Program-made: the position numbers and the translations under genes
Part shown: one piece after another, positions 2,153 through 17,294 of the stretch
Numbering within the stretch: the first letter of the stretch is position 1
How the letters are laid out: each line of letters begins with the position of its first letter
Notes under the pieces: model-generated
Databases searched by the model: none
What the model was told of the DNA's origin: nothing
What the model saw: only the letters and a program-made list of their open reading frames with translations
Source: an uncultured Pseudomonadales bacterium
GTDB taxonomy: Bacteria; Patescibacteriota; Microgenomatia; UBA1400; CG1-02-47-37
NCBI GenBank assembly: GCA_964630755.1
Contig: CAZVYS010000003.1
Span: 1-63,136, forward strand
Reading direction: 5' to 3'
Length of the DNA: 63,136 nt

Positions 2153-2156
2153 ATTG

Positions 2157-2230: not shown

Positions 2231-2257
2231 TTATAACTGCTGTATTTTACCATAAGT

Positions 2258-2557: not shown

Positions 2558-2571
2558 CCTTACAACTCAAC

Positions 2572-4902
2572 CTACAACTTCGACCGCTGAACAATCTCTG
2601 CCTCAATCACATTCTTATCTCTTGCATACTTCAATCTTGATAACTGCTTAACCATCTCAGCCATCTTGGTACTTCTCAGTGACTTTATTCTAGCCATATC
2701 TTTAGTCAAATCCATGCTAAACGGCGGCACTGGCTCATTGTCTACAATTGTTTTTATATAAGCATTAAACCGCTCAATGTTAATTAAATCAGTTTCTGTA
2801 AAATTAGGTTGAAACTCATGCTGAAGATAATTAGCATCTGTCACCCCTACCCTAAAAGTGAGTAAAGTGCCTACATTTCCAAAAATAGCATTTTTAACCT
2901 CTTCATCCATCTGACCAATAAACTGATTAGCCACCGTCAACGACAATCCAAACTTCCTAGCCTCTGACAGAATTTGAGCAAAATCTGGAGTAGCAAAGTT
3001 CTGAAACTCGTCCACATATACATAAAAAGGCTTTCTTTCTTCTTCAGGAATATCCTGTCTACTCATCGAGGCAATTAAAAGCTTTGGCACTAAGATCAAA
3101 CCTAAAAAGTTACTATTCTCTTCTCCAATTCTACCTTTAGCTAAATTAATCAACAATATTTTCCCTTCATCCATTACTTGCCTAAAATTAAAAGCCGACT
3201 CAGATTGCCCAATAATATTTCTCATCATCTTGTTAGTCACAAATCTACCAAACTTACTCACAATGTAATCTAAAACTTCTGACTTATGAAAATCACTTGT
3301 TTGTGAAATTTGATCTGTCCAGTATCTTCTTACAATCGGATCCTGCACTTTCGGCAACAATTCCTGCACATACTTACTATCTGTCAACACCCTCACTACC
3401 TCAATAAAAGTACTTCCTTCTTCACACATCACCGTCAACATAGCATTTCTAATAGCGTGCTCAAATCTTGGACCAATAATTCCTGTTTTATGCGGATCAT
3501 AAAGCTTATACATCAACCCAACAATCGAAGTCACCACAAAATGCTTTTCCTCTTCAGTCCGAGCTTCAAGCATGTTCAATCCCATTGGCCTGTCAGTATC
3601 CGATGGATTAAAATATATTACATCCTCGGCCCGTTCTGGTGGAATCATCTCCAAAATCTTCTCAACCGTGTCATGTGGATCAATAAAACAAACCCCTTTT
3701 CCCTCTTTAATGTCTTGCATAATCAAATCTGTTAAAAGCTCTGACTTTCCCACACCTGTCTTGCCAATAATATAAGTATGCCTTAATCTATCTGAATCAC
3801 TTAAATGAACATTTCTAGTTACTCCCCGATAAATACTTTTCCCTATAAACAAACCAGATTTCGGAATCAAAGCTGGCGCAGGCGCTCGTTTAGCTCTTAC
3901 CCAAAAAATATGTGGCGTTTCTATACTCTTATTTGGTAAATGAAAAATAGTCGCTAACTCTTCAACGCTCAAAACACTCTTGTTTCCAAGAACCGGCTGA
4001 TACCGATAAATAAAATCAATCATAAACATCTTCTTTAGTCTAATCTTCTGATTAGTAAAGCCGTTATGATCAGAAGAATACTGCGAAAAAGCAGAAGTCA
4101 TATTAGACAAATGAGCTTCTGCTGCCTCTTTTGTTGTCGAGCTCACCACCATCCTGACTAAAGTATTAAATCCAGGTTTTGAGCATTTATTTTCTATCTC
4201 TTCATAAGTCTTAGGGTCAATATTATACTGAGCTGTCTCAGGATCAGACTCTTCTTTTTTAGTTTTAGAAATAAACGATCTACCAGCCGATTGCCAATCA
4301 TTATCAGCTGGAGAAATCACTACTTGCATTACTGCTCCTTCATTATCTCCCATCTTAGCCATTGCCGCCGTAATGCTAGAAAGCGGATCAACCGGCAAAT
4401 CTTTATATACCTGTATCGGATAAAAAGAAGCACTGCTAAGCTTCATCGATGCAAACGCCACCTTGCCATGATCAGAAAAAATACTATACTCATCTACTTC
4501 TTTAACATCAGCTCCTGGATAAGCTCCGTGAATTTGCTTTTCAACTAAATCCCGCAACTTCTCTGGCACAGACACATAAAACCTTATATCTTCTTTTCTA
4601 GCTACAATCTCAAATGACAAATGCTCTTGAGCTTTAAGAAACGAAAAAATCCCTCCACTTTTTTTAAGACTAATTAACGATGCAAACATCTGCTCCGCCG
4701 CGTCAATCTTAATCTCATTATCTCTAGGTACAGCAATCTGTAGCAACACAAACTCTAGCGATTTCTTTTCCCTATCTCTAAACTTCCACCAACGAACAAA
4801 TAAATAAAATAAACCTGCAAATACTAAAAGACCCAATCCCAATCCAAAAGCTACCAGAACTAAATACCTAGCTTGATCAAGTATGGTTGAAAATTGATCC
4901 AT
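2572..4902 (-). CDS. VirD4/TraG/TraD-like membrane-anchored P-loop ATPase (type IV coupling protein-like)
   Basis: 776 aa with an N-terminal TM segment, Walker A IIGKTGVGKSE and Walker B FYVYVDEFQNF. The overall layout resembles T4SS coupling proteins. Confidence 0.75.
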   Translation of the reverse strand: MDQFSTILDQARYLVLVAFGLGLGLLVFAGLFYLFVRWWKFRDREKKSLEFVLLQIAVPRDNEIKIDAAEQMFASLISLKKSGGIFSFLKAQEHLSFEIVARKEDIRFYVSVPEKLRDLVEKQIHGAYPGADVKEVDEYSIFSDHGKVAFASMKLSSASFYPIQVYKDLPVDPLSSITAAMAKMGDNEGAVMQVVISPADNDWQSAGRSFISKTKKEESDPETAQYNIDPKTYEEIENKCSKPGFNTLVRMVVSSTTKEAAEAHLSNMTSAFSQYSSDHNGFTNQKIRLKKMFMIDFIYRYQPVLGNKSVLSVEELATIFHLPNKSIETPHIFWVRAKRAPAPALIPKSGLFIGKSIYRGVTRNVHLSDSDRLRHTYIIGKTGVGKSELLTDLIMQDIKEGKGVCFIDPHDTVEKILEMIPPERAEDVIYFNPSDTDRPMGLNMLEARTEEEKHFVVTSIVGLMYKLYDPHKTGIIGPRFEHAIRNAMLTVMCEEGSTFIEVVRVLTDSKYVQELLPKVQDPIVRRYWTDQISQTSDFHKSEVLDYIVSKFGRFVTNKMMRNIIGQSESAFNFRQVMDEGKILLINLAKGRIGEENSNFLGLILVPKLLIASMSRQDIPEEERKPFYVYVDEFQNFATPDFAQILSEARKFGLSLTVANQFIGQMDEEVKNAIFGNVGTLLTFRVGVTDANYLQHEFQPNFTETDLINIERFNAYIKTIVDNEPVPPFSMDLTKDMARIKSLRSTKMAEMVKQLSRLKYARDKNVIEAEIVQRSKL

Positions 4903-5333
4903 TACTTTCTCCTATAAGCTACTTTACCAGAAAACATCTTCATCATTCGCACGCACCACTCAGCTAACCATCTAACGCTATCAAGAACCTTGCGATGCAG
5001 CCCCTTATCTACTTCTTCTTTTGTTAATGGCAATACCACCTTAAACTTATTTTTCTTTTTATCATCAACGTCATCAAGCACCACTTGTCCTTTATCATCA
5101 GTTACTGGTTGTTGCAAGGCTGCATCTTCTTTCTCTAGCTTCTCAAGCCAACTTTCTACCTCAGGCTCCAAATCCACCTTTCTAGTATACTCGGTCATTG
5201 GAGTCACTTCTTGCTTGCCCACTCCAGCATCTACTCTCTCTTTTCCAGCCGACAAACCACCACCTGCTAATGTCTGTCCCGTAACCGCGGGATCTTGCTT
5301 CTTTTTCTTGTCATCCTTGGGCAGATTAGTCAT
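4902..5333 (-). CDS. hypothetical charged protein
   Basis: 143-aa ORF whose stop abuts the start codon of the downstream ATPase gene; no known motif. Confidence 0.5.
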   Translation of the reverse strand: MTNLPKDDKKKKQDPAVTGQTLAGGGLSAGKERVDAGVGKQEVTPMTEYTRKVDLEPEVESWLEKLEKEDAALQQPVTDDKGQVVLDDVDDKKKNKFKVVLPLTKEEVDKGLHRKVLDSVRWLAEWCVRMMKMFSGKVAYRRK

Positions 5334-5361
5334 ATACTCATGATATCACAAATCCTAATCC

Positions 5362-6444
5362 CTATAATCTATCTTTGTAGCTATCCACCAAGGCTTCAAA
5401 CTGCTCCCAACCCCTTAAAGCTAAATTATCTCCTTCACCATAAAACGCCTCCCAATACCTCCAGGCATTTTTACTTCCACTAAATACTATGTTTTTAGCA
5501 AACTTATAAAAAGGCTCTGAAGCCTCAACTTCATTAACTAAACCTCCTGCTTTCTTATTAAAAAACCATGGTTGACTTAAAGCAAAGTCTGTTGCCAAAG
5601 AAAATCGATTAGCATCATAATTCACATCCCCTGCCTGCAATAAATCTGCTCTTGCAACTATTTCTCTAACTATCTCAACCGTCTTTTCTCCCCAACCGCT
5701 ATTTGCTAAATTCCCACTATATCTAGTCTTAAAATCTTGACTAGTTTCATCACTCTCATAATCCACCATCAACATTACTGCCATCACTTCTTTAGAGCTT
5801 ACCTTACCCATGCTTAACTCACGCATTCTTGCCATCACATAAACTTTACTATCCACTAAATCCCAATCAACATCATGAATCATCATAGCCTTCAAGACAA
5901 CTTCGACCTTTCTTAGATCCAACATCTCTGTAGTTAACTCTTTTATTTTTAAGGCTCCGATTAACTCTCTAGCTGTATTAATTACAACCTGAGCTACATG
6001 ACCATTAGCCTCTTTCCAGCTACCTAAATTATGATAATAAGCCTTTTCATCTACTGGTAATCCTTCAGCTAAATCCTGATATGCTTCATGCACTACCCTC
6101 AATCCTTCAATCATCTGACCCACTTTTTTAAGATTAAAAAAACCACCAAATCCTTCCTCAATCTCCAACCAAGCTAACTCTCCATAGCCTTTCCCGTTCT
6201 CACCATTATCCTGATATTTCTCTCTTAATCGCTCCTCGTCCTCTCCAAACCCTTTCCATCTAGCTGGTGTGGTTACTAACCACACTCCATTTTCTTTGCC
6301 CAGTAACTCCCAAATCTCTTCTGGCAACAATTCTTTTGGGAAAAAACTCTCTTCTAAACCTGTCATTTCTTTAAAAGGCCGAGTCTCAATATTTGCTCGC
6401 AGTGGTTCTTTATTTACTTTTTCAGCTTGCTCTAAGTTATTCAT
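5362..6444 (-). CDS. hypothetical protein
   Basis: 360-aa uninterrupted ORF in the same operon-like run; no recognisable domain. Confidence 0.6.
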   Translation of the reverse strand: MNNLEQAEKVNKEPLRANIETRPFKEMTGLEESFFPKELLPEEIWELLGKENGVWLVTTPARWKGFGEDEERLREKYQDNGENGKGYGELAWLEIEEGFGGFFNLKKVGQMIEGLRVVHEAYQDLAEGLPVDEKAYYHNLGSWKEANGHVAQVVINTARELIGALKIKELTTEMLDLRKVEVVLKAMMIHDVDWDLVDSKVYVMARMRELSMGKVSSKEVMAVMLMVDYESDETSQDFKTRYSGNLANSGWGEKTVEIVREIVARADLLQAGDVNYDANRFSLATDFALSQPWFFNKKAGGLVNEVEASEPFYKFAKNIVFSGSKNAWRYWEAFYGEGDNLALRGWEQFEALVDSYKDRL

Positions 6445-6455: not shown

Positions 6456-7010
6456 CTAATAATCAAGGCCCTTAACAGCCTTAATTCCTTTATCAAACGG
6501 GTGTTTAATTTTCTTACACTCTGTCACCAAATCCGCCACCTCTAATAATCTTGCTGAGACTTCAAGGCCAGGCCTTGAAGTTCTCCCTGTTAAAACAACA
6601 TGAGTCTTCCCCCTCTTCCCTACTACTCTCATAACTTCTTTTTCCTTTATCAGTTTATCAGCAATCGCCTTAACCACCTCATCCATTACTAACACATCCA
6701 CTTTTTTTAACAAACTCTCAGCTTTTTTTAAGGCCGCGGCCGCGGCCTTCTTATGCTCTTCAGGAAACGCTTTGTCTGTTGGCAATTTATAAAATCCCTT
6801 TCCCATAAAATACATCTCTATTTTACCTTCAGGGATCATCCCTGAAGGTAACTTCTTCTCAGATATTGGCCAACTTTCTTCTTTATACCAACTCACCCAA
6901 CCCACCTTCATCTTATTGCATGCCGCTCTTGCTACCATTCCCAAAGCCGCCGAGGTCTTACCCTTCCCGTTTCCTGTAAAAACATAAACTAAGCCATCTT
7001 TAACGCTCAT
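6456..7010 (-). CDS. cobO: cob(I)alamin / cob(I)yrinic acid a,c-diamide adenosyltransferase (CobA/CobO/BtuR type)
   Basis: VFTGNGKGKTSAALG P-loop, DE motif, LTGR, and C-terminal KHPFDKGIKAVKGLDY, all closely matching BtuR/CobA family landmarks. Confidence 0.9.
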   Translation of the reverse strand: MSVKDGLVYVFTGNGKGKTSAALGMVARAACNKMKVGWVSWYKEESWPISEKKLPSGMIPEGKIEMYFMGKGFYKLPTDKAFPEEHKKAAAAALKKAESLLKKVDVLVMDEVVKAIADKLIKEKEVMRVVGKRGKTHVVLTGRTSRPGLEVSARLLEVADLVTECKKIKHPFDKGIKAVKGLDY

Positions 7011-7698
7011 AGCCTGTCTCTAGTTTACACTTTTTTCGCCAGTCTTTTACTGGCTTTACTCCAAACTCTTTCAATAAATTCTCAAGATACTCAAGCGGAA
7101 AACCCAATACATTAGTAAAAGAGCCTTTAATTTCTTTTACCAAACTCCCATATCCCGGTAACTGATACCTAATACTATACCCTCCCCCCTTGTCTAACAC
7201 TTCAAACTTTTTTAAATAATCTTCAATAATCTTTTCCTTATAAGCCTTCATCTTCACCTTAGTTTCACACACGCTTAATCTTCCCTCTTCAGATTTAGAA
7301 TCAACCAAAGCTACTCCACACCAAACCGAGTGAGTCTTGCCACCTAAACTCATCAACATCTTCTTGGCTTCTTTTTTATCTCTAGGCTTTCCTATCTGTC
7401 TTCCCTCAAGCTCCACAATCAAATCCGATCCAATAATTAAACTTCTCTCTTCACTTTCCCCTCGGCTTTTACCAATGGTCGAATGGTGAATACCATTCGT
7501 CGAGGATTTTTTGCTAAGTTCACCCGGCGAATGCCGGGGATTGCTAGCCTTTAACATACTAAGTTCCGCCACCAAGTCCTCACCACTATCTGCCTTTATT
7601 TTCGCCTCGTCAACCTTATGCCCAACTACCTTAAAAGGTAAGCCCATCCACTTAAGTAGCTCCTTTCTTCTTGGTGACTCTGAAGCTAAATAGAGCAT
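7000..7698 (-). CDS. maf: Maf-like nucleoside triphosphate pyrophosphatase, carrying an internal repeat-derived insertion
   Basis: MLYLASESPRRKELL N-terminus and IIGSDLIVELEGRQIGKPRDKKEAKKML core. An extra segment SNPRHSPGELSKKSSTNGIHHSTIGKS is encoded by repeat copy A. Confidence 0.85.
   Translation of the reverse strand: MLYLASESPRRKELLKWMGLPFKVVGHKVDEAKIKADSGEDLVAELSMLKASNPRHSPGELSKKSSTNGIHHSTIGKSRGESEERSLIIGSDLIVELEGRQIGKPRDKKEAKKMLMSLGGKTHSVWCGVALVDSKSEEGRLSVCETKVKMKAYKEKIIEDYLKKFEVLDKGGGYSIRYQLPGYGSLVKEIKGSFTNVLGFPLEYLENLLKEFGVKPVKDWRKKCKLETGYER
7471..7539 (+). repeat. GAAT-loop double-hairpin repeat, copy A (inside maf)
   Basis: accaatggt-CGAATGGT gaat ACCATTCG-spacer-CCCGGC gaat GCCGGG. 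Confidence 0.85.
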
Positions 7699-9911
7699 TT
7701 GGAAAACCCGCAAGCCCTACAAGTCATGCATCCTTCACCCATCTCCATCTCTTCACCACACTCAGGGCAAGTATTCTTCAGCGGTTTAACTTTCACCTTG
7801 CTTTGAATAACTTGTTTTGATTTATTTTTCTTTTTAGTTGTTTCTAAAACCTGCCCTTCCCTTGACCCAGATCGATAAATCGTCACCCCCTTACACTTAC
7901 TTTCCCAAGCTAACATATAAGTTTTTTCCACCTCCACCATTGACGCATCATTAGCAAAATTAATCGTTTTACTCACTGCATTCTCAGTGTGCCTTTGAAT
8001 AGCCGCCTGCATCTTAATATGCCCTTCTGGACTAACATCAAAAGCGGTTTTAAAAACTTTTTTAATTGAACTAGGCAAATACTCAATTTCTTGACAACTA
8101 CCTGATTTAGCCACCCGTAAAAATACCTCACTTTTCTGCTCTTCGCTTATTTTTAAACCCTCTATTGCCTTTTTAAAATACGGATTAACATAACTAAGCC
8201 CACCCTCTTCAACCACGTTTTTTACATATGATAAAGCAAAATTTGGTTCAATCCCACTTGAACAATCTGCCACCATACTAATGGTGCCGGTTGGAGCTAT
8301 TGTCGTTACTGCTAAATTTCTTCTAGTCTCGCCAGACTTCTCAAATAAACTCCCTTTTATATTCTTAAAAACTCCTTTTTCCTTGCCCAATCTCTCTGAT
8401 TCATTTATAGCTACCTTGTTCACAAACTTCATAGTTTTTTTAGCAACTTTAAGTCCTTCATCTGTGTCATACCCCACTCCCAATTGATACAGCATATCAG
8501 CCAAGCCCATTACCCCTAAACCAATCCTTCTATTAGCCTTAGCCATTTTCTTAATCTCTTTGATTGGATACAAACTCACATCTACTCCATTGTCCAAGAA
8601 CCTCACCGCTACACGAGTAACTACTTCCAATCTTTTCCAGTTTACGGTTCCCACCGAATCTTTACGCGCAAAGCGAACCATTCGAGCCAAATTTATTGAT
8701 CCTAAATTACAAACATCAAATGGGTGAAGTGGCTGTTCTCCGCAAGGATTAGTAGCCTCAAGCCTGCCCAAAGTCTCAATTACTGGGTTATTTTTATTAA
8801 TCGTATCCAAAAACACCATTCCCGGATCCCCTGTTCTCCAAGCCAAACTAACTATTTGATTAAATAAATTCCTAGCCTTTATCGTTTGAACCACTTCTCT
8901 CGTTCTAGGATTCCTGAGTTTAAAATTCTTGTTTCCTTTCACTGCTCTCATAAACTCATCTGTTACTCCCACCGAAATATTAAAATTGGCTATCTCCCCT
9001 TCTTCAGTCTTGCAAGTAATAAACTCCAAAATATCCGGATGATCAATATTTAATATCCCCATGTTTGCTCCCATTCTATAGCCCCCTTGCATCACCTGAG
9101 CTGTAGCTGCATCAAACACCTTCATAAAACTAACCGGTCCGGTGGCAAATCCTCCACTAGACTTAACATAGTCTCCTTTTGGCCGAAGCTTTGAAAAATT
9201 AAAGCCCGTTCCTCCTCCGGCCTGCTGAACCAAAGCCAGCCACTTTACCGCGTTAAAAATCTCCTCCATGCCGTCCTCAACCGGCAACACAAAGCAATTA
9301 GCCAATGTCGGTCTATTTGTTCCTGCTGATCTTAAATATCCTCCTGCTGGCACAAATTCTAATTTAGAAATCACCTCATAAAACTTTTCTTCCCATTTTG
9401 CTTGATTCTTTTTCCCCTTCTCTTTTAAAGCTATGTACTTTGACACTCTTCTAAATAGATCATTTGGCGTCTCTGTTGCTTTGCCATACTCGTCGTGTCT
9501 TAAATATCGATTCTCAAGCACCTTCAGTTGATTAATCGACAAGCCTAAATCATCTTCTACCCCCAAAGCTTGCTTGGCCTCTCTCACCTTCTGATGCTTT
9601 TCTCGGTAAATTATATACGCCTTGGCTGGATTAAAATGACCAGCAGCCATCAATACTTGCTCTACTACGTCTTGAACCTGCTCAACACTCGGAAACTCAC
9701 CATTCACGCCTTTCTTTAAAATATTAACCACTATCTTAGTTAATCTTTCAGCTTCCTTTTTCCTTCTACTCTCCTCTACTATCTCTCCTGTGGCTTCAAA
9801 AGCCTTCACAATCGCCCCAATCACCTTAGCTTCCTCAAAAGCCACTACTTGGCCATTTCGTTTTCTTATTTTACTTAAATCTGTCATAAATAACTTATCA
9901 ATTACGCCCAA
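7686..9911 (-). CDS. nrdJ: class II (adenosylcobalamin-dependent) ribonucleotide reductase with N-terminal ATP-cone
   Basis: 741 aa with an ATP-cone-like N-terminus (RKRNGQVVAFEEAKV), NCFVLPV, thiyl-radical motif [17 protein letters not shown], and a C-terminal CxxC...CxxC zinc ribbon. Confidence 0.92.
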   Translation of the reverse strand: MGVIDKLFMTDLSKIRKRNGQVVAFEEAKVIGAIVKAFEATGEIVEESRRKKEAERLTKIVVNILKKGVNGEFPSVEQVQDVVEQVLMAAGHFNPAKAYIIYREKHQKVREAKQALGVEDDLGLSINQLKVLENRYLRHDEYGKATETPNDLFRRVSKYIALKEKGKKNQAKWEEKFYEVISKLEFVPAGGYLRSAGTNRPTLANCFVLPVEDGMEEIFNAVKWLALVQQAGGGTGFNFSKLRPKGDYVKSSGGFATGPVSFMKVFDAATAQVMQGGYRMGANMGILNIDHPDILEFITCKTEEGEIANFNISVGVTDEFMRAVKGNKNFKLRNPRTREVVQTIKARNLFNQIVSLAWRTGDPGMVFLDTINKNNPVIETLGRLEATNPCGEQPLHPFDVCNLGSINLARMVRFARKDSVGTVNWKRLEVVTRVAVRFLDNGVDVSLYPIKEIKKMAKANRRIGLGVMGLADMLYQLGVGYDTDEGLKVAKKTMKFVNKVAINESERLGKEKGVFKNIKGSLFEKSGETRRNLAVTTIAPTGTISMVADCSSGIEPNFALSYVKNVVEEGGLSYVNPYFKKAIEGLKISEEQKSEVFLRVAKSGSCQEIEYLPSSIKKVFKTAFDVSPEGHIKMQAAIQRHTENAVSKTINFANDASMVEVEKTYMLAWESKCKGVTIYRSGSREGQVLETTKKKNKSKQVIQSKVKVKPLKNTCPECGEEMEMGEGCMTCRACGFSKCSI

Positions 9912-9935
9912 TGCAGACAGAAGTGCAGCGTTTTG

Positions 9936-11852
9936 TCATACACTACACTTGCTCCACCCGCATTCCATGCAAATAGCGCAACCCTCCTTTATTTCTAAAC
10001 TGCCCCCGCAATCCATACACATATCCTTATTTACTCTCAACACTTGATCTTCTTTAGATCCATCTCTGTAAATCGTTATCCCTTTACAACCTTGTTTCCA
10101 GGCTTGCAGATAAGCTTTTTTCACCTCATCAACACTCGCTTTCTTAGCAAAATTAATTGTTTTACTCACACTATTATCAAAGTTCTTCTGCCAAGCAGCT
10201 TGAATCTTTACATGATATTCCCAATCCACTTCATGAGTGGTAACAAATACTCGCCTAAATTTTACTGATATTTCTTTAATTTTCCCCATAGATCCCGTAC
10301 TAGCCAACTGACCCAATATTTCCTGTCTTCTTTTTTTATCCTTAACCTGACTCCTTAAAAACTCTTCAAACACTGGGTCAACTATTACCAACTCTCTGGT
10401 CGGCCGATTATCTTTATCATCCTCAAAAAATGTTCTTCTCAAAGTCACCAACGAAAACACCGGCTCTATTCCACTACTGCAATCTGCAAACAAACTAATT
10501 GTTCCTGTTGGCGCTATCATCGTGGTTGCACAATTCCTTCGTCTCTTTCCTCCAGCATAAATACTCACATCATAATTTGGAAAACTACCTCTTTCTTCTC
10601 CTAATTTCTCGGTTTCTCTATCAGCTTCTTTTCTAATAAAATGACTCAATTTCTCGGCTAACTTAACCGCTGCCTGACTGTTATATGCTATTTCTAGTTT
10701 ATAAAGCAAATGGGCAAACCCCATCACTCCTAGCCCAATTCTTCTATTACCCTCCTTAACCATCTTTTCATTTTTCTCCAAAGGATAACTATTCGCCTCA
10801 ATCATATTATCCAAAAACCTTACCCCCAAAGAAATTGACTTCTTAAGTTCCTTATAGTCCACTTCATACCGACCATTGGCCAATTTCTTTACATGATTAG
10901 AAAGCACTATGCTAGTCAAGTTGCAGTTCTCATACGGCAACATGGCTATTTCCCCGCAGGGATTAGTTGTCTCAATCCTTCCTAAGCTTGGCGTTGGGTT
11001 ATCCTTATCCATTGCATCAATAAAAGCCATCCCCGGATCTCCGCTTAAATGGGCTTGCTTGCAAATCTTAAAAAACAACTTATCCGCCCTTATTTTCTTC
11101 ACTACCTCATTAGTTCTAGGATTAACTAAAGCCCACATCTTTTTAGCCTCTACCGCCTTCATAAACTTATCAGTCACCCCCACCGACACATTAAAGTTTT
11201 TTAAATTTCCATCTTCAGCCTTCATCTCAATAAACTCTTCAATATCAGGATGTGTAACATTCAAAATCGCAATATTAGCTCCCTGTCTTTTTGCTCCTTG
11301 TAAAATTTTAGATAAAGCAGCACTAAACGCTTTAATAAAATCAACCGGGCCCGAAGCCGCTCCAATCACATTCTTAACCTTATCCCCATGAGGCCTAATC
11401 TTGGAAAAATTAAAACCAGTTCCTCCATTGTTTTTATGAACCACCGCAGCCTCACCTAATGTTTTAAAAATCGACTGAATACTATCTTCAATCGGCAACA
11501 CAAAACACGCCGCCATCTGTCCTGTTCCCCCTGGATTTCCAGCTTCAAACATAGCCTTTCCACTACAAACAAACTTTTTACTCACCATTCGCTCATAGAA
11601 CAACTCCGCAGTCTCTCTAACTTTACTATCTATAGCCGCAAGGGATGAATACCCCTTGCCCTTTAAACTCTTTGCAAACTTTACCCGGCGAATGCCGGGC
11701 CACAACACTTCAGGTTTAGCCATGTGTTGAGCCACTCGCCACAACATCTCCCCCACGCTCTCTACTAACCGACCCTTTTGATTAGCCATCAAGTATCTCT
11801 TTTGAGTTATCTCTAAGGCAGTTTTGGATTGCTTTGGTTCTATTATCTTCAT
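9936..11852 (-). CDS. nrdJ: class II ribonucleotide reductase paralogue (no ATP-cone), with internal repeat insertion
   Basis: 638 aa with ACFVLPI, TNPCGEIAM, CNLTSIVL and C-terminal CMDCGG...CAICMECG. Repeat copy B encodes the segment WPGIRRVKFAKSLKGKGYSS. Confidence 0.92.
   Translation of the reverse strand: MKIIEPKQSKTALEITQKRYLMANQKGRLVESVGEMLWRVAQHMAKPEVLWPGIRRVKFAKSLKGKGYSSLAAIDSKVRETAELFYERMVSKKFVCSGKAMFEAGNPGGTGQMAACFVLPIEDSIQSIFKTLGEAAVVHKNNGGTGFNFSKIRPHGDKVKNVIGAASGPVDFIKAFSAALSKILQGAKRQGANIAILNVTHPDIEEFIEMKAEDGNLKNFNVSVGVTDKFMKAVEAKKMWALVNPRTNEVVKKIRADKLFFKICKQAHLSGDPGMAFIDAMDKDNPTPSLGRIETTNPCGEIAMLPYENCNLTSIVLSNHVKKLANGRYEVDYKELKKSISLGVRFLDNMIEANSYPLEKNEKMVKEGNRRIGLGVMGFAHLLYKLEIAYNSQAAVKLAEKLSHFIRKEADRETEKLGEERGSFPNYDVSIYAGGKRRRNCATTMIAPTGTISLFADCSSGIEPVFSLVTLRRTFFEDDKDNRPTRELVIVDPVFEEFLRSQVKDKKRRQEILGQLASTGSMGKIKEISVKFRRVFVTTHEVDWEYHVKIQAAWQKNFDNSVSKTINFAKKASVDEVKKAYLQAWKQGCKGITIYRDGSKEDQVLRVNKDMCMDCGGSLEIKEGCAICMECGWSKCSV
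11627..11700 (+). repeat. GAAT-loop double-hairpin repeat, copy B (inside nrdJ paralogue)
   Basis: tatctatagccg-CAAGGGat gaat acCCCTTG-ccctttaaactctttgcaaacttta-CCCGGC gaat GCCGGG. Confidence 0.85.
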
Positions 11853-13750
11853 GACACACTACACCTTGAATAGCCACACGACAAACAAGTCGCACAGCCT
11901 TCTTTAAAACTTAATTCTCCCCCACACTCTGGACATAGCTCTTCTTGACTATGACCATTCCCAACCCATTTTCTTTGATTATCAACAATCGGATCACTCC
12001 CACTTTGACCTACTCCTGCATTCAAGACCTGCCTCGCCTTACTACCATCCCGATAAACCGTAATCCCTTTACACCCTGTTTGATAAGCCAACTCATAAGC
12101 TTCCTTAACATCGTCAGGCGACGCTGATCTAGACATATTAATCGTTTTTGAAACCGCTGCATCAATGTGCTTTTGCCAAGCTGCCTGCATCTTAATATGT
12201 GTTCTAAAATCTATCTCATGACTCACTTTAAACAACTCCTTAACATCTTTTGGCACGTTTACTATCTCGCTCACTCCTCCAGTCTCACTTACCTCCTTCA
12301 TTAACTCTTTTGAATAAAACTTTCTCTCTTTGGCCACTTTCAAAAACAAATCATTTGCTTCAAGCAACTCAGTATTATCCACATCCAAAATATTCTTTCT
12401 TATATACGACAAGGCAAACAAAGGCTCAATTCCACTACTACAATTGGCAATAATACTAATAGTTCCAGTTGGCGCCACTGTATTAACAGTACTATTCCGC
12501 ATCCCTTTAAAGCCTTGCTTCTCCCAATCACTACCTTTAAAGCCAGGAAACGAGCCTCTTTCTTTAGCTAGCTTTTGTGACTCACTAATAGCCGTGTCAT
12601 GAATAAACTTACTAATTCTCTCCCCCATTCTCAAACCTTGATTTGAATCATAAGCTATCTTTAGCTTTACCAGCATATCTGCAAACCCCATTACTCCTAA
12701 ACCAATCTTTCTAGTCTTTTTAGTCTGTTTATCTATCTCTGGCAATGGATACTTACAAATATCTATCACATTATCCAAAAACCGCACAGCTACTTGAACC
12801 AAATTCTCTATTTTCCTCCAGTTCACCTCCATCACCATTCCTCTACCTCTTTTTTTTCTCTTAACACACTTAGATAAATTAATGCTACCTAAATTACAAC
12901 TTTCATAAGGGAGTAACGGCTGCTCTCCGCAAGGATTAGTCGTTTCTATTCTTCCTAAATGCTTAATCGGACTAGCTTCATTCATCTTGTCAATAAAAAC
13001 CATCCCCGGATCTGCTGTCTTCCAAGCTTGAAAAGTAATCATATCAAGCACTCTAGAAGCCGAAATCTTTTTAACTACTTTAGTTCCAGTTTGCTCCGAC
13101 TCTCCATTGGGAATTCTCAACTCATACTCTTTCCCATTTAAAGCCGCCTTCATAAACTCATCTGTCACTCCCACTGAAATATTAAAATTTCTTACCTCTT
13201 CTTCAACCCCTTTTGCAAAAACAAAATCCATAATATCAGGGTGATGAACATCCATCACCGCCATTAAGGCTACTCTCCGACTAGAACCCTCGTTAATCAC
13301 TTCAGCTGCTTCGTTATAAAGCTTTAAAAAAGAAATTGGGCCAGAGGTAATTCCACCAGTTGATCGAATTCTTGATCCTCTAGGTCGCAAGTTAGACAAA
13401 GGAATGCCTACCCCACCGCCAGTCCTAGCAATCGTGGCCATCTCTTCCATCGAATTAAAAATACTCTCCAACGAATCAACTAAGGGCAGCACAAAACACG
13501 CCGATAATTGATTAAACTTAGTTCCTGCATGCATTAAAGTTGGCGAGTTTGGTAAAAACTCCAACTTACTCATCACCTTGTAAAACTTTTTCTCCCACTT
13601 GCTTCTATTCTCTTTCTTTTCAATCTTTGATATCGCTTTAGCCACCCTCCTAAACATCTGATCAGGCTTTTCAACCACTCTTCCTTCTTTATCTTTTTTT
13701 AGATAATCTCGCTTGGTCAAAACTGTTAAGGCATTATCTGACAACTTCAT
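11849..13750 (-). CDS. nrdJ: class II ribonucleotide reductase paralogue (no ATP-cone)
   Basis: 633 aa with [24 protein letters not shown] and C-terminal CPECGG...CATCLSCG. It overlaps both neighbouring genes by 4 nt. Confidence 0.92.
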
Positions 13751-14193
13751 TTAATCTCCTTAACTAACTTGGTAAAATCTTTAATTTTATCAAAATCCAA
13801 ATAAACACTGGCAAACCGAACATAAGCCACCTTATCAAGCTTCTTTAGCCGTTTTAAAATCGCATTCCCAACTAACTTACTACTAACTTCACCATTCTTT
13901 TTCCTCATCATCTCTTGCTCAACCTGATCTACTATTTTCTCTATTTTATTAATACTCACCGGCCTCTTCTCACAAGCCCTCACCACTCCTTTTCTCAATT
14001 TTTCTCGGTCAAAGCTCTCTCTCTTATCATCCTTTTTTACTACTTGAAGCTGAGGCCCCTCTATTCTTTCATAAGTCGTAAATCTTTTGGTGCATTTATT
14101 ACACTCCCTTCTTCTCCTGGTAACTGTCTCGTCCTCGCTATCACGAGACTCTAATACTGATGATTCGTTATTATCGCAAAATGGACATTTCAT
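13747..14193 (-). CDS. nrdR: transcriptional repressor NrdR
   Basis: MKCPFCDNNESSVLESR...CNKCTKRFTTYERIE zinc ribbon followed by an ATP-cone. Confidence 0.95.
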   Translation of the reverse strand: MKCPFCDNNESSVLESRDSEDETVTRRRRECNKCTKRFTTYERIEGPQLQVVKKDDKRESFDREKLRKGVVRACEKRPVSINKIEKIVDQVEQEMMRKKNGEVSSKLVGNAILKRLKKLDKVAYVRFASVYLDFDKIKDFTKLVKEIK

Positions 14194-14285: not shown

Positions 14286-14332
14286 ACACTATCGGCAGTG
14301 TCCAACAAAACTTTATCCACCATCCGTAGTGT
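14286..14332 (-). promoter_or_regulatory. tandem NrdR boxes upstream of the nrdR-nrdJ operon
   Basis: ACACTATCGGCAGTGT (14286-14301) and CCACCATCCGTAGTGT (14317-14332). They match the 16-bp palindrome acaCwAtATaTwGtgt at 12/16 and 11/16 positions, and start 31 bp apart. Confidence 0.55.
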
Positions 14333-14394
14333 AGTCAACTACCAACTTGTAGCACAAACTATATCAACAACTTTTCTACCCCTGTTATTGCCCT

Positions 14395-16470
14395 TTAATT
14401 TATCATCGTTTCCGAAAACCGATCAAAATACCTCACCTTCTTATTCGACTCACCAACCTCCATCGCTGGAATTTTGTTCTTTAATACTACTGGTTGTATT
14501 ACAAATGTATCCGCAATCTCAGAAAGGATTGCCACAGCAGCAAAAGACCAGTCCCGAAACAAGCTAAAAAACTGATCACTTCCTTCCTCAATTGTTACCC
14601 CCATCGCCCACTCAGCCCCTCCAACCCATTCTTCCAATCCATCCAAAGCCGGTACAGCCATCGACCATCCCAACTCTTCATATTCAGGAATACTTACCTC
14701 ACTTTCCGGCAACCACTCAAAATCATCCATTTTTGGAATCTCAACCTCACTTACTTCAACCTCTTGCTCACCAACTCCAACACTAGGTCTACTATCTTCT
14801 TCAGTCGCTAATAAAACTCCCCTGTCGCCTTGCTCCTCATCACCCACAACCCAACTCCCACTCAACCCACTATAACTAACGTCTTGACTACTACTTTCAA
14901 CTATCTGTTCCTCGTGGCTGTCTCTCTCTGATAAGTTTTTGTTAACAGTTTCAGTCTCTTCAGTTATGCTTGACTCCATCTCCAAAACCGACTTCTCTCC
15001 TACCCATCCATCTTTTTGCCCTACCGCTACTTGTTCTGTTTCTTTTTGAAAAACCACCTCTCTTCCACTAGGACTTGGACCATCAACTGGCTCTTCAGGC
15101 TCTGGGTCATCAAAATCCTCTTCCTCGGCCACATCCAGCTCTTCATCAACTTCTAATGCTTTAGTCTCCAATGCTTTAGTCACTTGCTCAACTCTACTAA
15201 TCTCTTGAAACAAATCTATTTCTCGACTATCAACCGCCTCATCCACCTGCTTATCAGCTATTCCCTCAAAACTCGCCTGACTTGCTTCTACTGGCCAGTC
15301 AAAAACATCAACTGCTTCAGATAATTCAGGTGTTTCAGATATTCCAGGCAATGCAAATCTAGTTTGAGCCTCTAATGCCATTACGCTTAAAGCATTAATT
15401 CCACCAAACACAAACTCCCCACCATCTAATCTTTGTGTCTCAATCATAAAACCAGAAAACATCTCTGCTCTAAATTCCACTGGCATCATCATTGTTAACA
15501 TCGTCATCTCGCCCAAAAACTCTAATCTCATTTCTTCTAACAAGCCATCTATTAAACTATCAATTTCTTCTAATCCACCTTCTACTGCTCCTTGATAAAT
15601 CTCCCCATTCTCTCCCTTAATTTTCACATCACCTATTTCATTAGATTTTCCCTCCCATTCTCCCAATGTTCCCCCACTCAATCCTCCACCATCACTTCCA
15701 TGACTACTCCTAGTCACAATATGCTCACCCACTTTCAAACCATCTAATTCTGCTTGTTCAATCAAAAACTCGTCAATCCCATCCTTTCCACACAAAAATC
15801 CCGCCCACATAATTTTCTCTCCCATCTCGTCTATTAGCCATTCTTCTCCATCAATCATCTGATATCTAATCCTTTTACCTAAATCCCGGTTATTGCCCTC
15901 TAGCTCATCAACCACCCTTCTATCCCATTCTTCATCGATTTCTCTCATTCCCAACAACTGCCAAGCCTCTACAAACACATCCGGCATCCCATTTCCTACA
16001 TACTCATAAATCATCGGCTCTTTACTCCACTCCTCCACTTCTTCTGAGTATTCTTCAGGTAGTAAAACTCTCTTAATGTTTAAACTTCCTCCTTCATTAA
16101 AAACAATCTCTAAAGCCTTACTTAATCCAGTTAAATTCGCCAACTCATCATCTAGATCCAAAAATCTTATCATCGTCATTCCTGATTCTCTTAGTTCAGA
16201 AAAATCTTCCCAGTCAGCCCCCTCTAGATCCATCACCCAACTCTTGCTCTGCCACTCTTCATCAACTAAATCTAATCTGGTGCTCGTTATCGGTGAATTT
16301 ATTAAATCATCTCTGCTTACTTTTCCTATCTTGTCGATTATTAAGTCCTGCTTATCTGGCTTAATCTCGATTCTCTCCCCTTTTGCCGCAAACATCACCT
16401 GAGGCAAACTATAAAGTTCTTCCACCCCCACCTGGACTTCTATATTAATATTTTTTGCTTCTACTGGCAT
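14395..16470 (-). CDS. highly acidic orphan protein, apparently cobalamin-riboswitch controlled
   Basis: 2.1-kb uninterrupted ORF, very Asp/Glu rich, with no signal peptide or TM visible. ATG at 16470 preferred because the 9 extra codons from the TTG at 16497 are the terminator hairpin of the leader. Confidence 0.7.
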   Translation of the reverse strand: MPVEAKNINIEVQVGVEELYSLPQVMFAAKGERIEIKPDKQDLIIDKIGKVSRDDLINSPITSTRLDLVDEEWQSKSWVMDLEGADWEDFSELRESGMTMIRFLDLDDELANLTGLSKALEIVFNEGGSLNIKRVLLPEEYSEEVEEWSKEPMIYEYVGNGMPDVFVEAWQLLGMREIDEEWDRRVVDELEGNNRDLGKRIRYQMIDGEEWLIDEMGEKIMWAGFLCGKDGIDEFLIEQAELDGLKVGEHIVTRSSHGSDGGGLSGGTLGEWEGKSNEIGDVKIKGENGEIYQGAVEGGLEEIDSLIDGLLEEMRLEFLGEMTMLTMMMPVEFRAEMFSGFMIETQRLDGGEFVFGGINALSVMALEAQTRFALPGISETPELSEAVDVFDWPVEASQASFEGIADKQVDEAVDSREIDLFQEISRVEQVTKALETKALEVDEELDVAEEEDFDDPEPEEPVDGPSPSGREVVFQKETEQVAVGQKDGWVGEKSVLEMESSITEETETVNKNLSERDSHEEQIVESSSQDVSYSGLSGSWVVGDEEQGDRGVLLATEEDSRPSVGVGEQEVEVSEVEIPKMDDFEWLPESEVSIPEYEELGWSMAVPALDGLEEWVGGAEWAMGVTIEEGSDQFFSLFRDWSFAAVAILSEIADTFVIQPVVLKNKIPAMEVGESNKKVRYFDRFSETMIN

Positions 16471-16494
16471 AAAAAAACCTTCCTCGCAGGAAGG
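16471..16494 (-). terminator. intrinsic terminator / RBS-sequestering hairpin of the riboswitch expression platform
   Basis: Minus strand reads CCTTCC-tgcga-GGAAGG followed by TTTTTTT and then ATG. The GGAAGG arm doubles as the only SD-like sequence. Confidence 0.6.
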
Positions 16495-16665
16495 CAATAC
16501 CCTTTATCTCCTCCTGCTCGGGAGAGTCCGACGATATATCAGACTTATCATTTAAAGCTCAGTCTTCTGGCTTGTCCGAAGTTACATCAGACTTACAGTT
16601 GCGGCACAGCTTCGGCATTCCTGCTTCGACCTTAGGCGGGTCACCGAATTCCCTGAATCTTTAAT
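16471..16665 (-). promoter_or_regulatory. cobalamin (B12) riboswitch
   Basis: Minus strand: AGGGAATTCGGTGA...CCGAAGCTGTGCCGCAACTGTAAG...ACAAGCCAGAAGACTGAGC. This matches the conserved AGGGAA, GGTGA, GCxGxxCCGCAACTGTAA and B12-box AGCCAGgAGAC elements. Confidence 0.75.
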
Positions 16666-16676
16666 TTAATTGTCAA

Positions 16677-17294
16677 TTATAATTCTGTTTTACTTATCAC
16701 TAATATTTGCTCTAAAACTTGCCTTTGCTCTTCTCCTACTTTTTCATTAATAATCATTATCACTTCCTGATGTTTCCTTGCAGCCTTAGAAAGCTTTTCT
16801 CTAAATTCTGTTTTTGACTCATCAAGTTCAGAAGATAACATCATTGCTTGCTCTAAATATTTTTCCGCCTTTGTTAAGGTTGTTACTCCCAAACTTACCT
16901 TTCCACCTTCAACTAAAGCCCAACCTGCCCCCAAACGCTTATCAGCATATAAAAGCAGTTTTTCTGCCTTTGATTCTGTTTTAGTTGTTAACCACAACTG
17001 CACTTTATCTCTAACCATCTTTAACCAATACATCGGATGGTCTGGTAAAATCCCTGGATACGGTAAATAATAATCAACTGACTCTTGAGAAACTTCCATT
17101 AATGGAGCCTTAGTAATCACCATGCTATTACTTTCAGTTTCTTCTTCTATCACTACCTCTTCCTCCACTTCATGTACTTCATGTTCATGAGCTACTGCTA
17201 GGCTTGTTGCTGACACCCTTAACACTCCTACTCCAAACAGCAACCCCAACACTACTATATATACAGGCATCTTTATCTCATCATGCTTTCTCAT
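16677..17294 (-). CDS. membrane-anchored or secreted hypothetical protein (DUF5667-like)
   Basis: 205 aa with an N-terminal hydrophobic segment and the motif YYLPYPGILPDHPMYWLKMVRDKV followed by helical repeats. Confidence 0.55.
   Translation of the reverse strand: MRKHDEIKMPVYIVVLGLLFGVGVLRVSATSLAVAHEHEVHEVEEEVVIEEETESNSMVITKAPLMEVSQESVDYYLPYPGILPDHPMYWLKMVRDKVQLWLTTKTESKAEKLLLYADKRLGAGWALVEGGKVSLGVTTLTKAEKYLEQAMMLSSELDESKTEFREKLSKAARKHQEVIMIINEKVGEEQRQVLEQILVISKTEL

Follow-up and report, generated by a model that had tools for sequence, protein, structure and literature searches.

Genes repressed by B12 are overwhelmingly those for B12 uptake, salvage or synthesis or for B12-independent isozymes, and B12 riboswitches also control alternative ribonucleotide reductases (RNRs), for example nrdABS in Streptomyces and nrdDG elsewhere. 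To our knowledge, Patescibacteria cannot make B12, yet invest heavily in B12-dependent DNA-precursor synthesis, and we know of no account of how these reduced, host-attached bacteria obtain and manage the cofactor. Our literature search for B12 riboswitches in Patescibacteria or the candidate phyla radiation found no paper. Among the described switches, the Priestia megaterium metE type is a repressing transcriptional corrinoid riboswitch that has been dissected experimentally (PMC10327014), and regulation by env8 proceeds through a kissing loop between L5 and L13 that contains a bulge (PMC10327014). The riboswitch described here, which lies in a stretch of DNA of 63,136 nucleotides (the window), can be compared with both.

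Scanning the whole window with cmscan returned a match to RF00174 (Rfam clan CL00101) at 16540..16677 on the minus strand, with an E-value of 5.4e-5 and a score of 34.2 bits, only 2.7 bits over the curated gathering score of 31.5 bits that served as our criterion. The alignment spans the full model (positions 1-189), and its conserved core, consisting of GGGAA, GGUG, GCCGCAACUGU and the B12 box, carries posterior probabilities of '*'. The motifs on which the initial annotation had based its proposal of a cobalamin riboswitch (AGGGAA, GGTGA, GCTGTGCCGCAACTGTAAG and the B12 box AAGCCAGAAGAC, the last at 16562-16573 on the minus strand) are all in the sequence, and the proposal passed the RF00174 check. 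The low score can be attributed to two departures from the model: the P6 extension is missing, being cut to 8 nt compared with 58 nt in the model, and a lineage-specific hairpin of 21 nt is inserted in the P4 loop (16620-16640, minus strand). The latter is the unusually long stem-loop insertion that had been suspected from the sequence, and it is real. Because of the reduced P6 extension, we regard the aptamer as class-II-like; the peripheral P6 extension that is the hallmark of class I (AdoCbl) aptamers was not found in it. A missing or minimal P6 extension is also seen in class-II aptamers (the env8 HyCbl type and RF01689 AdoCbl-II, clan CL00101), but unlike these the window copy is matched best by the general RF00174 model, and it keeps a short P6 hairpin in addition to the P4-loop hairpin.

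The aptamers at 11 related loci, which belong to the protein family described below, score 34.7-59.7 bits, apart from one with 26 bits; the gathering score of RF00174 is passed by 11 of the 12 leaders in the family, the remaining one being that with 26 bits. At L019 the best model is RF01689 AdoCbl-II (39 bits). The P6 hairpin is wholly missing at L010, L011, L017 and L019, while L014 has a comparable hairpin inserted at the same site in the P4 loop. When the 12 aptamers were aligned with MAFFT and RNAalifold, P4 alone aligned well and the 5' part poorly, owing to variable insertions, and covariation was counted for P4, where double changes that keep the pairing occur in four of five pairs among the relatives' aptamers. 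The closing helix is present at all 12 loci in differing sequences. A promoter scan found no convincing sigma-70 promoter for the riboswitch transcript; a conserved ATTGACAATTAA lies immediately 5' of P1 with no -10 box at the proper distance, and the riboswitch may be co-transcribed with upstream genes.

Like the P. megaterium metE type (PMC10327014), the leader has a P13 hairpin after the aptamer (UCUCC-CGAGCA-GGAGG, 16510..16525, minus strand), whose loop is a candidate L13 able to kiss L5, and P13 can provide an antiterminator by pairing its 3' side with the terminator's 5' side. The terminator scan placed an intrinsic terminator, CCUUCC-UGCGA-GGAAGG-U7, at 16471..16494 (minus strand). It is the CCTTCC/GGAAGG hairpin plus T7 that was first noticed from the sequence alone, and its U7 ends directly at the ATG (16468-16470). 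The 5' arm of this terminator can pair with the 3' arm of P13 (GCAGGAGG/CCUUCCUGC), so that the P13 3' arm is half of the antiterminator as well. The minimum free energy fold of the free leader is the antiterminator, and the energies predicted for the window are -13.8 kcal/mol for the antiterminator, -8.2 kcal/mol for the terminator and -6.4 kcal/mol for P13. The elements of the metE type (P13, an exclusive antiterminator, and a terminator with a U-run) are present in 11 of the 12 leaders, which share a common platform of P13, antiterminator, CCUUCC/GGAAGG terminator, U6-7 and AUG; in these, the antiterminator is predicted to be stabler than P13 (-7.5 to -16.4 versus -4.1 to -8.3 kcal/mol). 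The exception, L007, has only a translational form of P13 and the Shine-Dalgarno sequence (SD). The CGAGCA loop of P13 is invariant in all 12 leaders, and one pair of its stem covaries without ever being disrupted (C-G in 8 leaders, U-A in 3). L5 (UGCCG, within 16595-16610, minus strand) and L13 (CGAGCA) can make five pairs with one A bulged; as both loops are invariant across the 12 leaders, no covariation support is possible for this kissing loop.

There are also several differences from the metE type, in addition to the class-II-like aptamer without a P6 extension. The L5 of the window is UGCCG, in contrast to the consensus UCCCG, and the proposed kissing loop needs the bulged A; the 3' arm of the terminator is itself the SD and the U-run abuts the AUG; and the controlled gene is not a known B12 gene. 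As the terminator's 3' arm doubles as the SD and the U-run abuts the start codon, control is probably both transcriptional and translational. A hairpin that both terminates transcription and buries the SD had been proposed in the initial annotation; this is supported, and the hairpin is conserved in 11 of the 12 leaders. Because the platform matches the experimentally dissected repressing type, the gene is expected to be turned off by B12, and we consider the class-II-like cobalamin riboswitch to act, very probably, as an OFF switch for one gene. When B12 binds, the CGAGCA loop of P13 would dock on L5 and lock the purine tract GGAGG within P13, and the CCUUCC/GGAAGG-U7 hairpin would then form, so that transcription stops at the start codon and the SD is buried. 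With B12 absent, the 3' arm of P13 and the CCUUCC would instead form the antiterminator, and the gene would be transcribed and translated.

The gene under this control (14395..16470, minus strand, defined by its translation and homologues) encodes a protein of 691 aa with a pI of 4.05, 23.6% D+E and a net charge of -108, which bears out its initial description as extremely acidic. It had also been called an orphan, and this is correct in that it belongs to no known family, but 11 other clusters of related proteins exist. A word-indexed search with the single protein returned one relative, and with a 12-sequence profile only P0003; because a word index misses a family that evolves this fast, an exhaustive profile search was needed, and among 1.84 billion representatives it found 10 further clusters, all of 580-685 aa. 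The family thus comprises 12 clusters including the window protein, with net charges from -27 to -108. Two spurious hits from the tail of that search were set aside: P0014, a repeat-rich, unrelated protein, and P0013, a family fragment of only 55 aa. Those members with a named source belong to Patescibacteria and Candidatus Beckwithbacteria. The protein diverges much faster than its neighbours, with 43% identity compared with 64-76%. A cobalamin riboswitch lies ahead of the gene at the same position in all 12 members, which argues that the association is not due to chance; however, the loci share their synteny within a single related clade, so it does not amount to 12 independent events. An expectation set beforehand was that homologues would also be associated with B12 riboswitches or B12 genes, and every homologue found follows such a riboswitch and adjoins B12 or RNR genes.

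The best-conserved part of the protein is an N-terminal alpha/beta domain (aa 1-320, 15511..16470, minus strand), which is 30-43% identical to those of the other 11 members and has 21 invariant columns. Its AF2 model has a pLDDT of 79.7 and a pTM of 0.76, with low confidence in the loop at residues 258-275. An invariant histidine, aromatic residues and a Gly-rich loop are found family-wide; the loop, H-G-x-G-G-x-x-S-A-A-T (aa 257-268, 15667-15702, minus strand), starts with the invariant His257, and the polar invariant residues of the domain are E32, R134, N193, R195, H257, S265, T268 and E297. This domain is followed by an acidic linker of about 270 aa that is predicted to be disordered (aa 339-599, 14674..15456, minus strand; pLDDT below 50 across aa 339-610). 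The linker has two motifs of the [DE][IV]Px[WYF] type (aa 577-581 and 593-597), and a family motif of the type P-x-x-P-G-G-L is degenerate in the window protein (PSPSGR). The C-terminal half cannot be aligned between species, and the full-length AF2 model contributes nothing beyond disorder and, at the C-terminus, two helices of low confidence (aa 600-655, 14506..14673, minus strand). The second of these (aa 631-655) is hydrophobic and followed by basic residues, with a best 19-aa Kyte-Doolittle window of 1.71, which is borderline. Windows at the equivalent site score 1.07-2.13 in 10 of the 11 full-length members (all but P0004), some of them above transmembrane level; P0003 was excluded from this comparison, as it is truncated before the site, and in P0004 and P0005 the linker holds a higher-scoring window. 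With a tail anchor taken as a single transmembrane helix at most about 50 residues from the C-terminus in a protein that has no signal peptide, the modelled helix may be a tail anchor or an amphipathic membrane helix. The initial statement that the protein has no transmembrane segment, signal peptide or DxHxxG motif therefore needs qualifying for this helix; its other two parts stand, since no family member has an N-terminal signal peptide or hydrophobic segment, and DxHxxG is absent from the window protein and not conserved in the family.

Searches for relatives outside the family agree with the earlier statement that the protein has no recognisable similarity. Pfam gave no match for any of the 12 members at E<=5, PF02310 included, and NCBIfam, PHROGs, PADLOC and a PDB sequence-profile search gave none for the protein. 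Foldseek with the N-domain model against PDB and BFVD returned nothing with E<1e-3; the top matches were to LOV-PAS, PAS-GAF and MON1/CCZ1 longin folds (E 2e-3 to 0.1, probability at most 0.47, TM at most 0.22). The canonical B12-binding domain (PF02310, DxHxxG...SxL...GG, Rossmann-like) was not recognised by Pfam, motif or Foldseek searches, RNR membership was not indicated by any match to PF02867 or PF13597, and no Pfam, NCBIfam or PDB-sequence match placed the protein with BtuF, BtuG, BtuM or DUF4430. Resemblance of the loop to that of GHMP kinases (HGGGGAxSAAT against PxGSGLGSSAA) was considered and rejected, as the motif is wrongly placed and there is neither a Pfam nor a fold match. The family also has no conserved cysteine column, and four of its 12 members have no cysteine at all.

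Downstream of the gene lies an operon (6456..14193, minus strand) in which Pfam and NCBIfam identify nrdR (13747-14193), three copies of nrdJ (11849-13750, 9936-11852 and 7686-9911), maf (7000-7713) and cobO (6456-7010), all on the minus strand. Apart from maf, these had already been named from the sequence. The TNPCGE loop and the C-terminal CxxC tail are retained in each nrdJ copy, and with three intact nrdJ and cobO the window illustrates the investment in B12-dependent DNA-precursor synthesis referred to above. An RNR locus (nrdR, nrdJ or nrdD) is immediately downstream of the gene wherever downstream DNA exists. The next gene is nrdR in the window and at L001-L006, L008, L010, L013, L018 and L019, and at L009 and L017 it is directly the RNR large subunit. 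As the RNR that follows nrdR at L010 is the B12-independent nrdD, the association is with RNR loci generally and not strictly with nrdJ. Conservation and the promoter/terminator scan point to a separate nrdR promoter region (14286..14366, minus strand) with a TGATATAGTTTG motif (14355-14366), GTTGAC (14334-14342) and two NrdR boxes whose centres are 31 bp apart (14317-14332 and 14286-14301). Conservation of TGATATAGTTTG and GTTGAC extends over the window and every one of the eight relatives whose downstream DNA is available. Ahead of nrdR, the window and six of these eight also have NrdR-type boxes; L009 and L017 have a different palindrome instead, GCGCAC/GTGCGC. The terminator scan found no intrinsic terminator between the stop codon of the ORF and this promoter. 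The locus thus resembles riboswitch-controlled alternative RNRs in having a cobalamin OFF switch in an RNR neighbourhood of an NrdJ-bearing organism. It differs from them in that the first gene has neither an RNR fold nor a conserved cysteine, and in that the RNR genes, mostly of class II, are preceded by a promoter-like region of their own, which contains NrdR boxes where nrdR is the next gene.

Upstream of the riboswitch, some relatives encode DUF4430 (L007, L013 and L019), which is the C-terminal domain of transcobalamins (PMC4350170), and DUF6580 membrane proteins are also found upstream in relatives. Neither is encoded next to the gene in the 63-kb window, and no second riboswitch was found at the relatives' loci that have them. 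A relationship of DUF6580 to BtuM was rejected, as PDB sequence and NCBIfam searches were both empty, and our literature search found no paper mentioning DUF6580. Without a match in any of these, a role for DUF6580 as a B12 transporter is a contextual guess.

We tentatively favour the view that the protein is a cytoplasmic, starvation-induced factor, possibly tethered to the membrane, that captures corrinoid and hands it to the reductases. Made only under B12 scarcity, it would serve B12 supply to these enzymes by trapping corrinoid as it enters the cell, which in the relatives may involve the DUF4430 (transcobalamin-like) and DUF6580 membrane proteins encoded nearby, and the trapped corrinoid would go on to CobO and NrdJ, with His257 of the Gly-rich loop as the candidate cobalt ligand. 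Since no terminator follows the ORF, read-through from the derepressed leader may also lift the transcription of nrdR and the RNR genes. Dependence of Patescibacteria on scavenged B12 is plausible. Like B12 capture and trafficking proteins, this one is predicted to be expressed under B12 limitation and is encoded beside a corrinoid adenosyltransferase and B12 enzymes, and an invariant histidine in a flexible Gly-rich loop recalls His-on ligation. Support for capture and hand-off comes from cobO in the operon, from DUF4430 and DUF6580 upstream in relatives and from the lack of a signal peptide. Against it, the protein has no DxHxxG motif, B12-related Pfam match or structural relative, the model is least confident in the candidate ligand loop, DUF4430 and DUF6580 are missing near the window gene and in relatives sit ahead of the riboswitch, the RNR at L010 is the B12-independent nrdD, and fast evolution is unusual for a cofactor chaperone. 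Unlike BtuF, BtuG, BtuM, transcobalamin/DUF4430, PF02310 and MMACHC/CblC, to which it has no sequence or fold similarity, most of its mass is an acidic disordered region. BtuM uses a conserved Cys, which this acidic family does not have. The more specific proposal that the N-domain is a new, His-on class of corrinoid-binding domain (through His257), forming a trap, tethered at the inner face of the membrane through the C-terminal helix and the long acidic linker, that drives B12 acquisition and passes the cofactor to CobO and NrdJ, is possible but doubtful. The new cobalamin acquisition, binding or storage factor first suggested for this gene is a hypothesis; no B12-binding motif or fold was found. 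A storage role does not sit well with an OFF switch, which would allow synthesis of the protein under B12 shortage, nor does acquisition outside the cell with the lack of a signal peptide.

It is also conceivable, although rather unlikely, that the protein responds to B12 starvation without binding B12 and acts on the nucleic-acid or replication side. Its polyanionic disorder and its [DE][IV]Px[WYF] motifs, which may resemble SSB tips, could mimic DNA or SSB tails and titrate NrdR, replication or repair proteins, so that RNR expression is adjusted or replication slowed. The position directly ahead of nrdR and of RNR genes of both kinds (nrdJ and nrdD), the long disordered linker and the net negative charge throughout the family, the short linear motifs kept within otherwise unalignable sequence, a rate of evolution typical of interaction or mimic proteins, and the lack of a B12-binding signature in Pfam and motif searches would all fit such an effector. 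However, what is conserved best is the folded 320-aa domain, whose polar invariant residues suggest ligand binding or catalysis, and NrdR already senses dATP/ATP, so an additional derepressor seems redundant. Less probable still is that the switch mainly serves the reductase operon by read-through and that the ORF is a lineage-specific passenger unrelated to B12. B12 scarcity would then boost expression of the reductases, or of nrdD at L010, where the classical B12 repression of a B12-independent isozyme would be reproduced; the unterminated junction with the nrdR promoter, and a gap of just 70 nt at L001, would permit this. It leaves unexplained why an ORF of 2 kb, conserved and with a well-folded domain under constraint, is retained throughout and why the nrdR promoter region with its NrdR boxes is itself conserved, and raising B12-dependent NrdJ through a B12 OFF switch would be useful only indirectly.

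A location outside the cell, with the N-domain displayed on an acidic stalk and the C-terminal helix as an anchor to capture B12 from the host or environment, appears improbable. Anchored surface proteins do show a similar order of globular head, long flexible linker, hydrophobic helix and basic residues, and both fast evolution and repression by B12 would suit a surface uptake factor, but the missing signal peptide cannot be hidden further upstream, because the conserved order of SD, terminator and AUG sets the start codon. Export of some 600 residues with no signal would be unprecedented, and the hydrophobicity of the helix is borderline. We give very little weight to the ORF as a new B12-independent ribonucleotide reductase replacing NrdJ, comparable to riboswitch-controlled nrdAB, nrdDG or metE: B12 OFF logic and a position by nrdJ match the classical pattern, but the protein resembles none of the RNR families, its conserved domain spans just 320 aa and does not fold like the RNR barrel, and with four cysteine-free members and no conserved cysteine column thiyl-radical chemistry is impossible, which effectively refutes this reading. 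Practically no credence remains for an artefact, in which a chance Rfam match precedes a non-coding open frame. The narrow margin of the window score over the gathering score and the lack of database annotation for the ORF could be read in this way, but it is refuted by the riboswitches of the relatives, which match the same Rfam family at the same position with up to 59.7 bits and show compensatory changes in P4 and P13, and by the conservation of the domain across 12 clusters (30-43% identity) and its fold model (pLDDT 80).

Riboswitches are among the most reliable signposts to unknown metabolism, and consistent placement behind a B12 switch makes a gene likely to be part of the B12 economy, even where its sequence offers no clue. 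The leader itself offers a small, naturally occurring case in which a class-II-type aptamer is joined to a platform that combines a terminator with sequestration of the SD. The protein behind it represents a family for which neither sequence nor fold searches detect a relative, known so far only from one clade of Patescibacteria. If the N-domain does bind and pass on corrinoid, this would be the first described component of B12 acquisition or trafficking specific to ultra-small, host-dependent Patescibacteria; if the protein does not bind B12, an effector of B12 starvation that acts on ribonucleotide reduction or replication would also be new. The gene family marks an unknown part of how Patescibacteria cope with the scarcity of B12.

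With Rfam gathering thresholds applied to all 63 kb of the window, a scan returned two matches, one to a tRNA and one to the cobalamin riboswitch family RF00174 at 16540-16677 (-). The riboswitch match spans the model end to end and scores 34.2 bits against a gathering threshold of 31.5 (E 5.4e-5), at the locus where the initial annotation had proposed a B12 riboswitch from the sequence alone; every motif that it quoted was found. The score is modest because the aptamer has a reduced P6 extension (8 nt where the RF00174 model has 58) and carries a 21-nt hairpin (16620-16640) inserted in the loop of P4, which is the long insertion suspected earlier. The riboswitch belongs to a known class, combining a class-II-type aptamer with a metE-type repressing platform. 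Directly 5' of P1, and overlapping the stop codon of the upstream DUF5667 gene, lies ATTGACAATTAA (16666-16677 (-)), which is found again in the leaders of the homologue-bearing contigs L008 and L010, and in slightly altered form in those of L009, L014, L017 and L018. A -35-like TTGACA lies within it, but no -10 box was seen there at the right spacing.

The aptamer is directly followed by a first hairpin, P13 (UCUCC-CGAGCA-GGAGG, 16510-16525 (-)), and then by a terminator hairpin (CCUUCC-UGCGA-GGAAGG plus U7, 16471-16494 (-)), identified from the sequence and by a terminator scan, whose U tract runs directly into the ATG of the ORF (16468-16470 (-)). Across the family, leaders have the order first hairpin, 9-43-nt spacer, CCUUCC-loop-GGAAGG, U6-7 and (A/G)AUG. 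The CGAGCA loop of the first hairpin is invariant, its stem reads CUCC/GGAG or CUUCC/GGAAG, and one stem pair covaries, being C-G in eight sequences, U-A in three and broken in none. In 11 of the 12 leaders, the 3' arm of the first hairpin is predicted to pair instead with the terminator's 5' arm as an antiterminator, which is stabler (-7.5 to -16.4 kcal/mol) than the first hairpin alone (-4.1 to -8.3 kcal/mol), and the minimum-energy fold of the free window leader contains the antiterminator, not the terminator. The 3' arm of the terminator, GGAAGG, lies 6-8 nt 5' of the AUG and is likely the Shine-Dalgarno (SD) sequence, so the terminator hairpin would block translation too. The L007 leader is a simpler variant in which the SD, 2 nt 5' of the AUG, is the P13 3' arm itself (GGAGGAG). 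In L008 and L017 the called starts are too far upstream, and the apparent N-terminal extensions are translated leader RNA.

This layout of P13, antiterminator and terminator is that of the metE repressing corrinoid riboswitch of P. megaterium, whose platform architecture was established by mutagenesis (PMC10327014). In that riboswitch, a kissing loop between L5 and L13 stabilises P13, and the antiterminator must exceed P13 alone in strength (PMC10327014). In our leaders, L5 (UGCCG) and the candidate L13 (CGAGCA) could form five pairs with one bulged A, and their kissing would link the aptamer to the platform; because both loops are invariant, we infer this step rather than demonstrate it. The structure of the switch can be read from the leaders and its response to ligand is predicted; a B12-OFF switch acting on both transcription and translation is in our view highly probable.

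The contigs encoding every family member (12 clusters, including the window) were fetched and scanned against Rfam, and a cobalamin-clan match was found directly upstream of the gene in all of them. RF00174 was matched in nine clusters at 34.7-59.7 bits, the leader of L019 matched RF01689 (AdoCbl-II) at 39 bits, and those of L014 and L015 matched RF00174 at 26 bits (E 0.011), likewise with an inserted hairpin in the P4 loop. Among the 12 aptamers there are compensatory changes in P4, and the closing helix is present in each with differing sequences. The initial annotation had made its proposal depend on the RF00174 score and on whether homologues in other genomes also follow B12 riboswitches, and with a score above gathering and a riboswitch at every homologue it therefore stands on both counts. 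The 12 riboswitch-gene pairings are not 12 independent associations, as the loci, all from a single clade, are syntenic.

Read from the ATG that follows the terminator, the ORF encodes 691 aa with a pI of 4.05, 23.6% Asp+Glu and a net charge of -108. A word-indexed search of 5.8 billion proteins recovered only the protein itself and one homologue, P0002, which is 41% identical over the first 350 residues. A profile of both N-terminal regions, searched against 1.84 billion representatives, added ten further clusters of 582-683 aa (E 1e-157 to 3e-47) and nothing else credible. Members with a named source come from the 'Patescibacteria group' or 'Candidatus Beckwithbacteria bacterium CG2_30_44_31' and are always annotated as 'hypothetical protein'. 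L003 (CAZYUF010000009.1), a GTDB representative with a P0002-type locus, is titled 'uncultured Pseudomonadales bacterium'; because it agrees with the Beckwithbacteria loci in gene content and synteny, a wrong label on the MAG or wrong binning of the contig is probable.

The 12-member alignment defines an N-terminal domain of ~320 aa with 21 invariant columns (including E32, R134, W170, W182, N193, R195, H257, G262, S265, T268 and E297) and a signature loop, H-G-x-G-G-x-x-S-A-A-T. Next comes a variable acidic region that contains two [DE][IV]Px[WYF] motifs and a P-x-x-P-G-G-L motif, which in most members follows the acidic tract; the C-terminal segment is hydrophobic. Every member is acidic (pI 4.05-4.7), and four lack cysteine altogether. 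Between the window and the P0002 organism, neighbouring proteins are 64-76% identical, while the N-domain of the ORF is 43% identical and the C-terminal half cannot be aligned; the gene thus evolves fast, with an N-domain that is clearly constrained. The short motifs of the window protein (14680-14742 (-), aa 577-597) read EIPKM and SIPEY and are flanked by acidic residues; their P0002 counterparts are EIPIY and EIPEW in otherwise unalignable sequence, and 10 of the 12 members have at least one copy that fits the pattern. To us these motifs recall the acidic-hydrophobic tips of SSB proteins. Public data also hold four near-identical variants of the window protein, one of which has Cys for the invariant Ser265 (15676-15678 (-)); this conserved position may be truly polymorphic, or the change may be a sequencing error. 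The variants differ further by D164V, Q171E and K476T.

An AlphaFold2 model of the N-domain built from the 12-sequence alignment (pLDDT 79.7, pTM 0.76) comprises two alpha/beta sub-domains, and its sole long low-confidence stretch is the His-Gly-rich loop at 258-275. The full-length model adds disorder at 339-610 and two low-confidence C-terminal helices, the second of which (631-655) is hydrophobic and, with family Kyte-Doolittle values of 1.1-2.1, borderline for a membrane anchor. Foldseek searches of the N-domain model against PDB and BFVD gave no match below E 1e-3, the weak top matches being tandem PAS/GAF and longin-type domains (TM <=0.22). There was likewise no match in a profile search of PDB sequences, in Pfam for any member at E<=5, or in NCBIfam, PHROGs and PADLOC.

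On the same strand 3' of the ORF are nrdR, three nrdJ genes, maf and cobO; on its 5' side are genes for a DUF5667 protein and a CMP-kinase-like protein. An RNR locus follows the ORF wherever downstream DNA exists, with nrdR 3' of it in the window, L001-L006, L008, L010, L013, L018 and L019, and an RNR large subunit directly 3' of it in L009 and L017. Instead of nrdJ, L010 has a gene for a class III anaerobic reductase (NRDD with an ATP cone, 4325-5668 (+)) 3' of nrdR, which links the acidic-protein family to RNR loci generally. The three tandem nrdJ paralogues of the window (7686-13750 (-)) share 40-45% identity; the TNPCGE catalytic loop and a CxxC...CxxC tail at the C terminus occur in each, an ATP cone in the third alone. 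For a small Patescibacteria genome, three class II reductases, all apparently intact, are many. Beyond cobO, the region 1244-6444 holds orphan ORFs of 360 and 143 aa, a 776-aa ATPase with TrwB/TraG domains that resembles type IV secretion coupling proteins, a tyrosine integrase (1244-2152) and a tRNA (2157-2230), and may be a mobile element integrated at the tRNA.

Upstream, several relatives encode a secreted DUF5667 protein, which carries a signal peptide and ends in DUF4430, together with a DUF6580 membrane protein. These genes lie just 5' of the riboswitch in L019 (6553-7792), L013 (2-963), L007 (128-877) and L001 (13-534); in L001 the called DUF6580 ORF overlaps the aptamer by ~90 nt. Transcobalamins have DUF4430 as their C-terminal domain (PMC4350170). 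The two proteins of the relatives may be a B12 uptake pair; the window has no DUF6580 gene, and its DUF5667 protein is without DUF4430.

The spacer between the ORF and nrdR is conserved in relatives, with TGATATAGTTTG first, GTTGAC next and finally a pair of ACACT-N6-AGTGT palindromes at 31-bp spacing, which we take to be NrdR boxes. In L009 and L017, TGATATAGTTTG and GTTGAC are kept, and a GCGCAC/GTGCGC palindrome replaces the boxes. TGATATAGTTTG resembles an extended -10 element and may act as a promoter, an operator or an RNA signal. It occurs at 14355-14366 (-) in the window and, ahead of the RNR genes, in L001, L008, L009, L010, L013, L017, L018 and L019, where it overlaps the stop codon of the ORF or comes immediately 3' of it. 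In L009, L010 and L017 it is duplicated, ~20 nt 5' of GTTGAC and the NrdR boxes. From the conserved spacer elements, nrdR-nrdJ therefore has its own promoter-like region with NrdR boxes. The scan found no terminator 3' of the ORF, the only one called there being the second NrdR box, so read-through from the derepressed leader into the operon may occur; in L010, it would place a B12-independent RNR beneath a B12 OFF switch.

The genes known to be repressed by B12 riboswitches are of two groups, those for B12 uptake, salvage or synthesis and those for B12-independent isozymes. An isozyme would here be a reductase, which is excluded by the absence of cysteine and of any RNR fold, and we give almost no credence to a new RNR. 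As the other group then remains, we tentatively favour, at a little under even confidence, a role in B12 supply under scarcity, as a corrinoid capture and hand-off factor. Such a protein would be cytoplasmic, possibly membrane-tethered, and would feed corrinoid to CobO and NrdJ, with His257 as a candidate cobalt ligand. This and all the other functional readings are predictions from sequence.

In the main rival reading, which we consider unlikely, the protein is a starvation effector without B12 binding that would use the polyanionic linker and the conserved short motifs to act on replication or on the regulation of RNR. It is improbable that the main purpose of the switch is read-through control of the RNR operon. 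An exported scavenger is a poor candidate: an N-terminal hydrophobic segment is absent from all members, and the conserved RNA platform leaves no doubt about the start codon. That the observation is an artefact is barely conceivable.

To our knowledge, B12 handling in the Patescibacteria phylum is undescribed, and our literature search on B12 riboswitches and B12 handling in this phylum found no paper. The cargo of the switch described here is a protein family without a detectable relative in sequence or fold, and it is always paired with the switch and an RNR locus.
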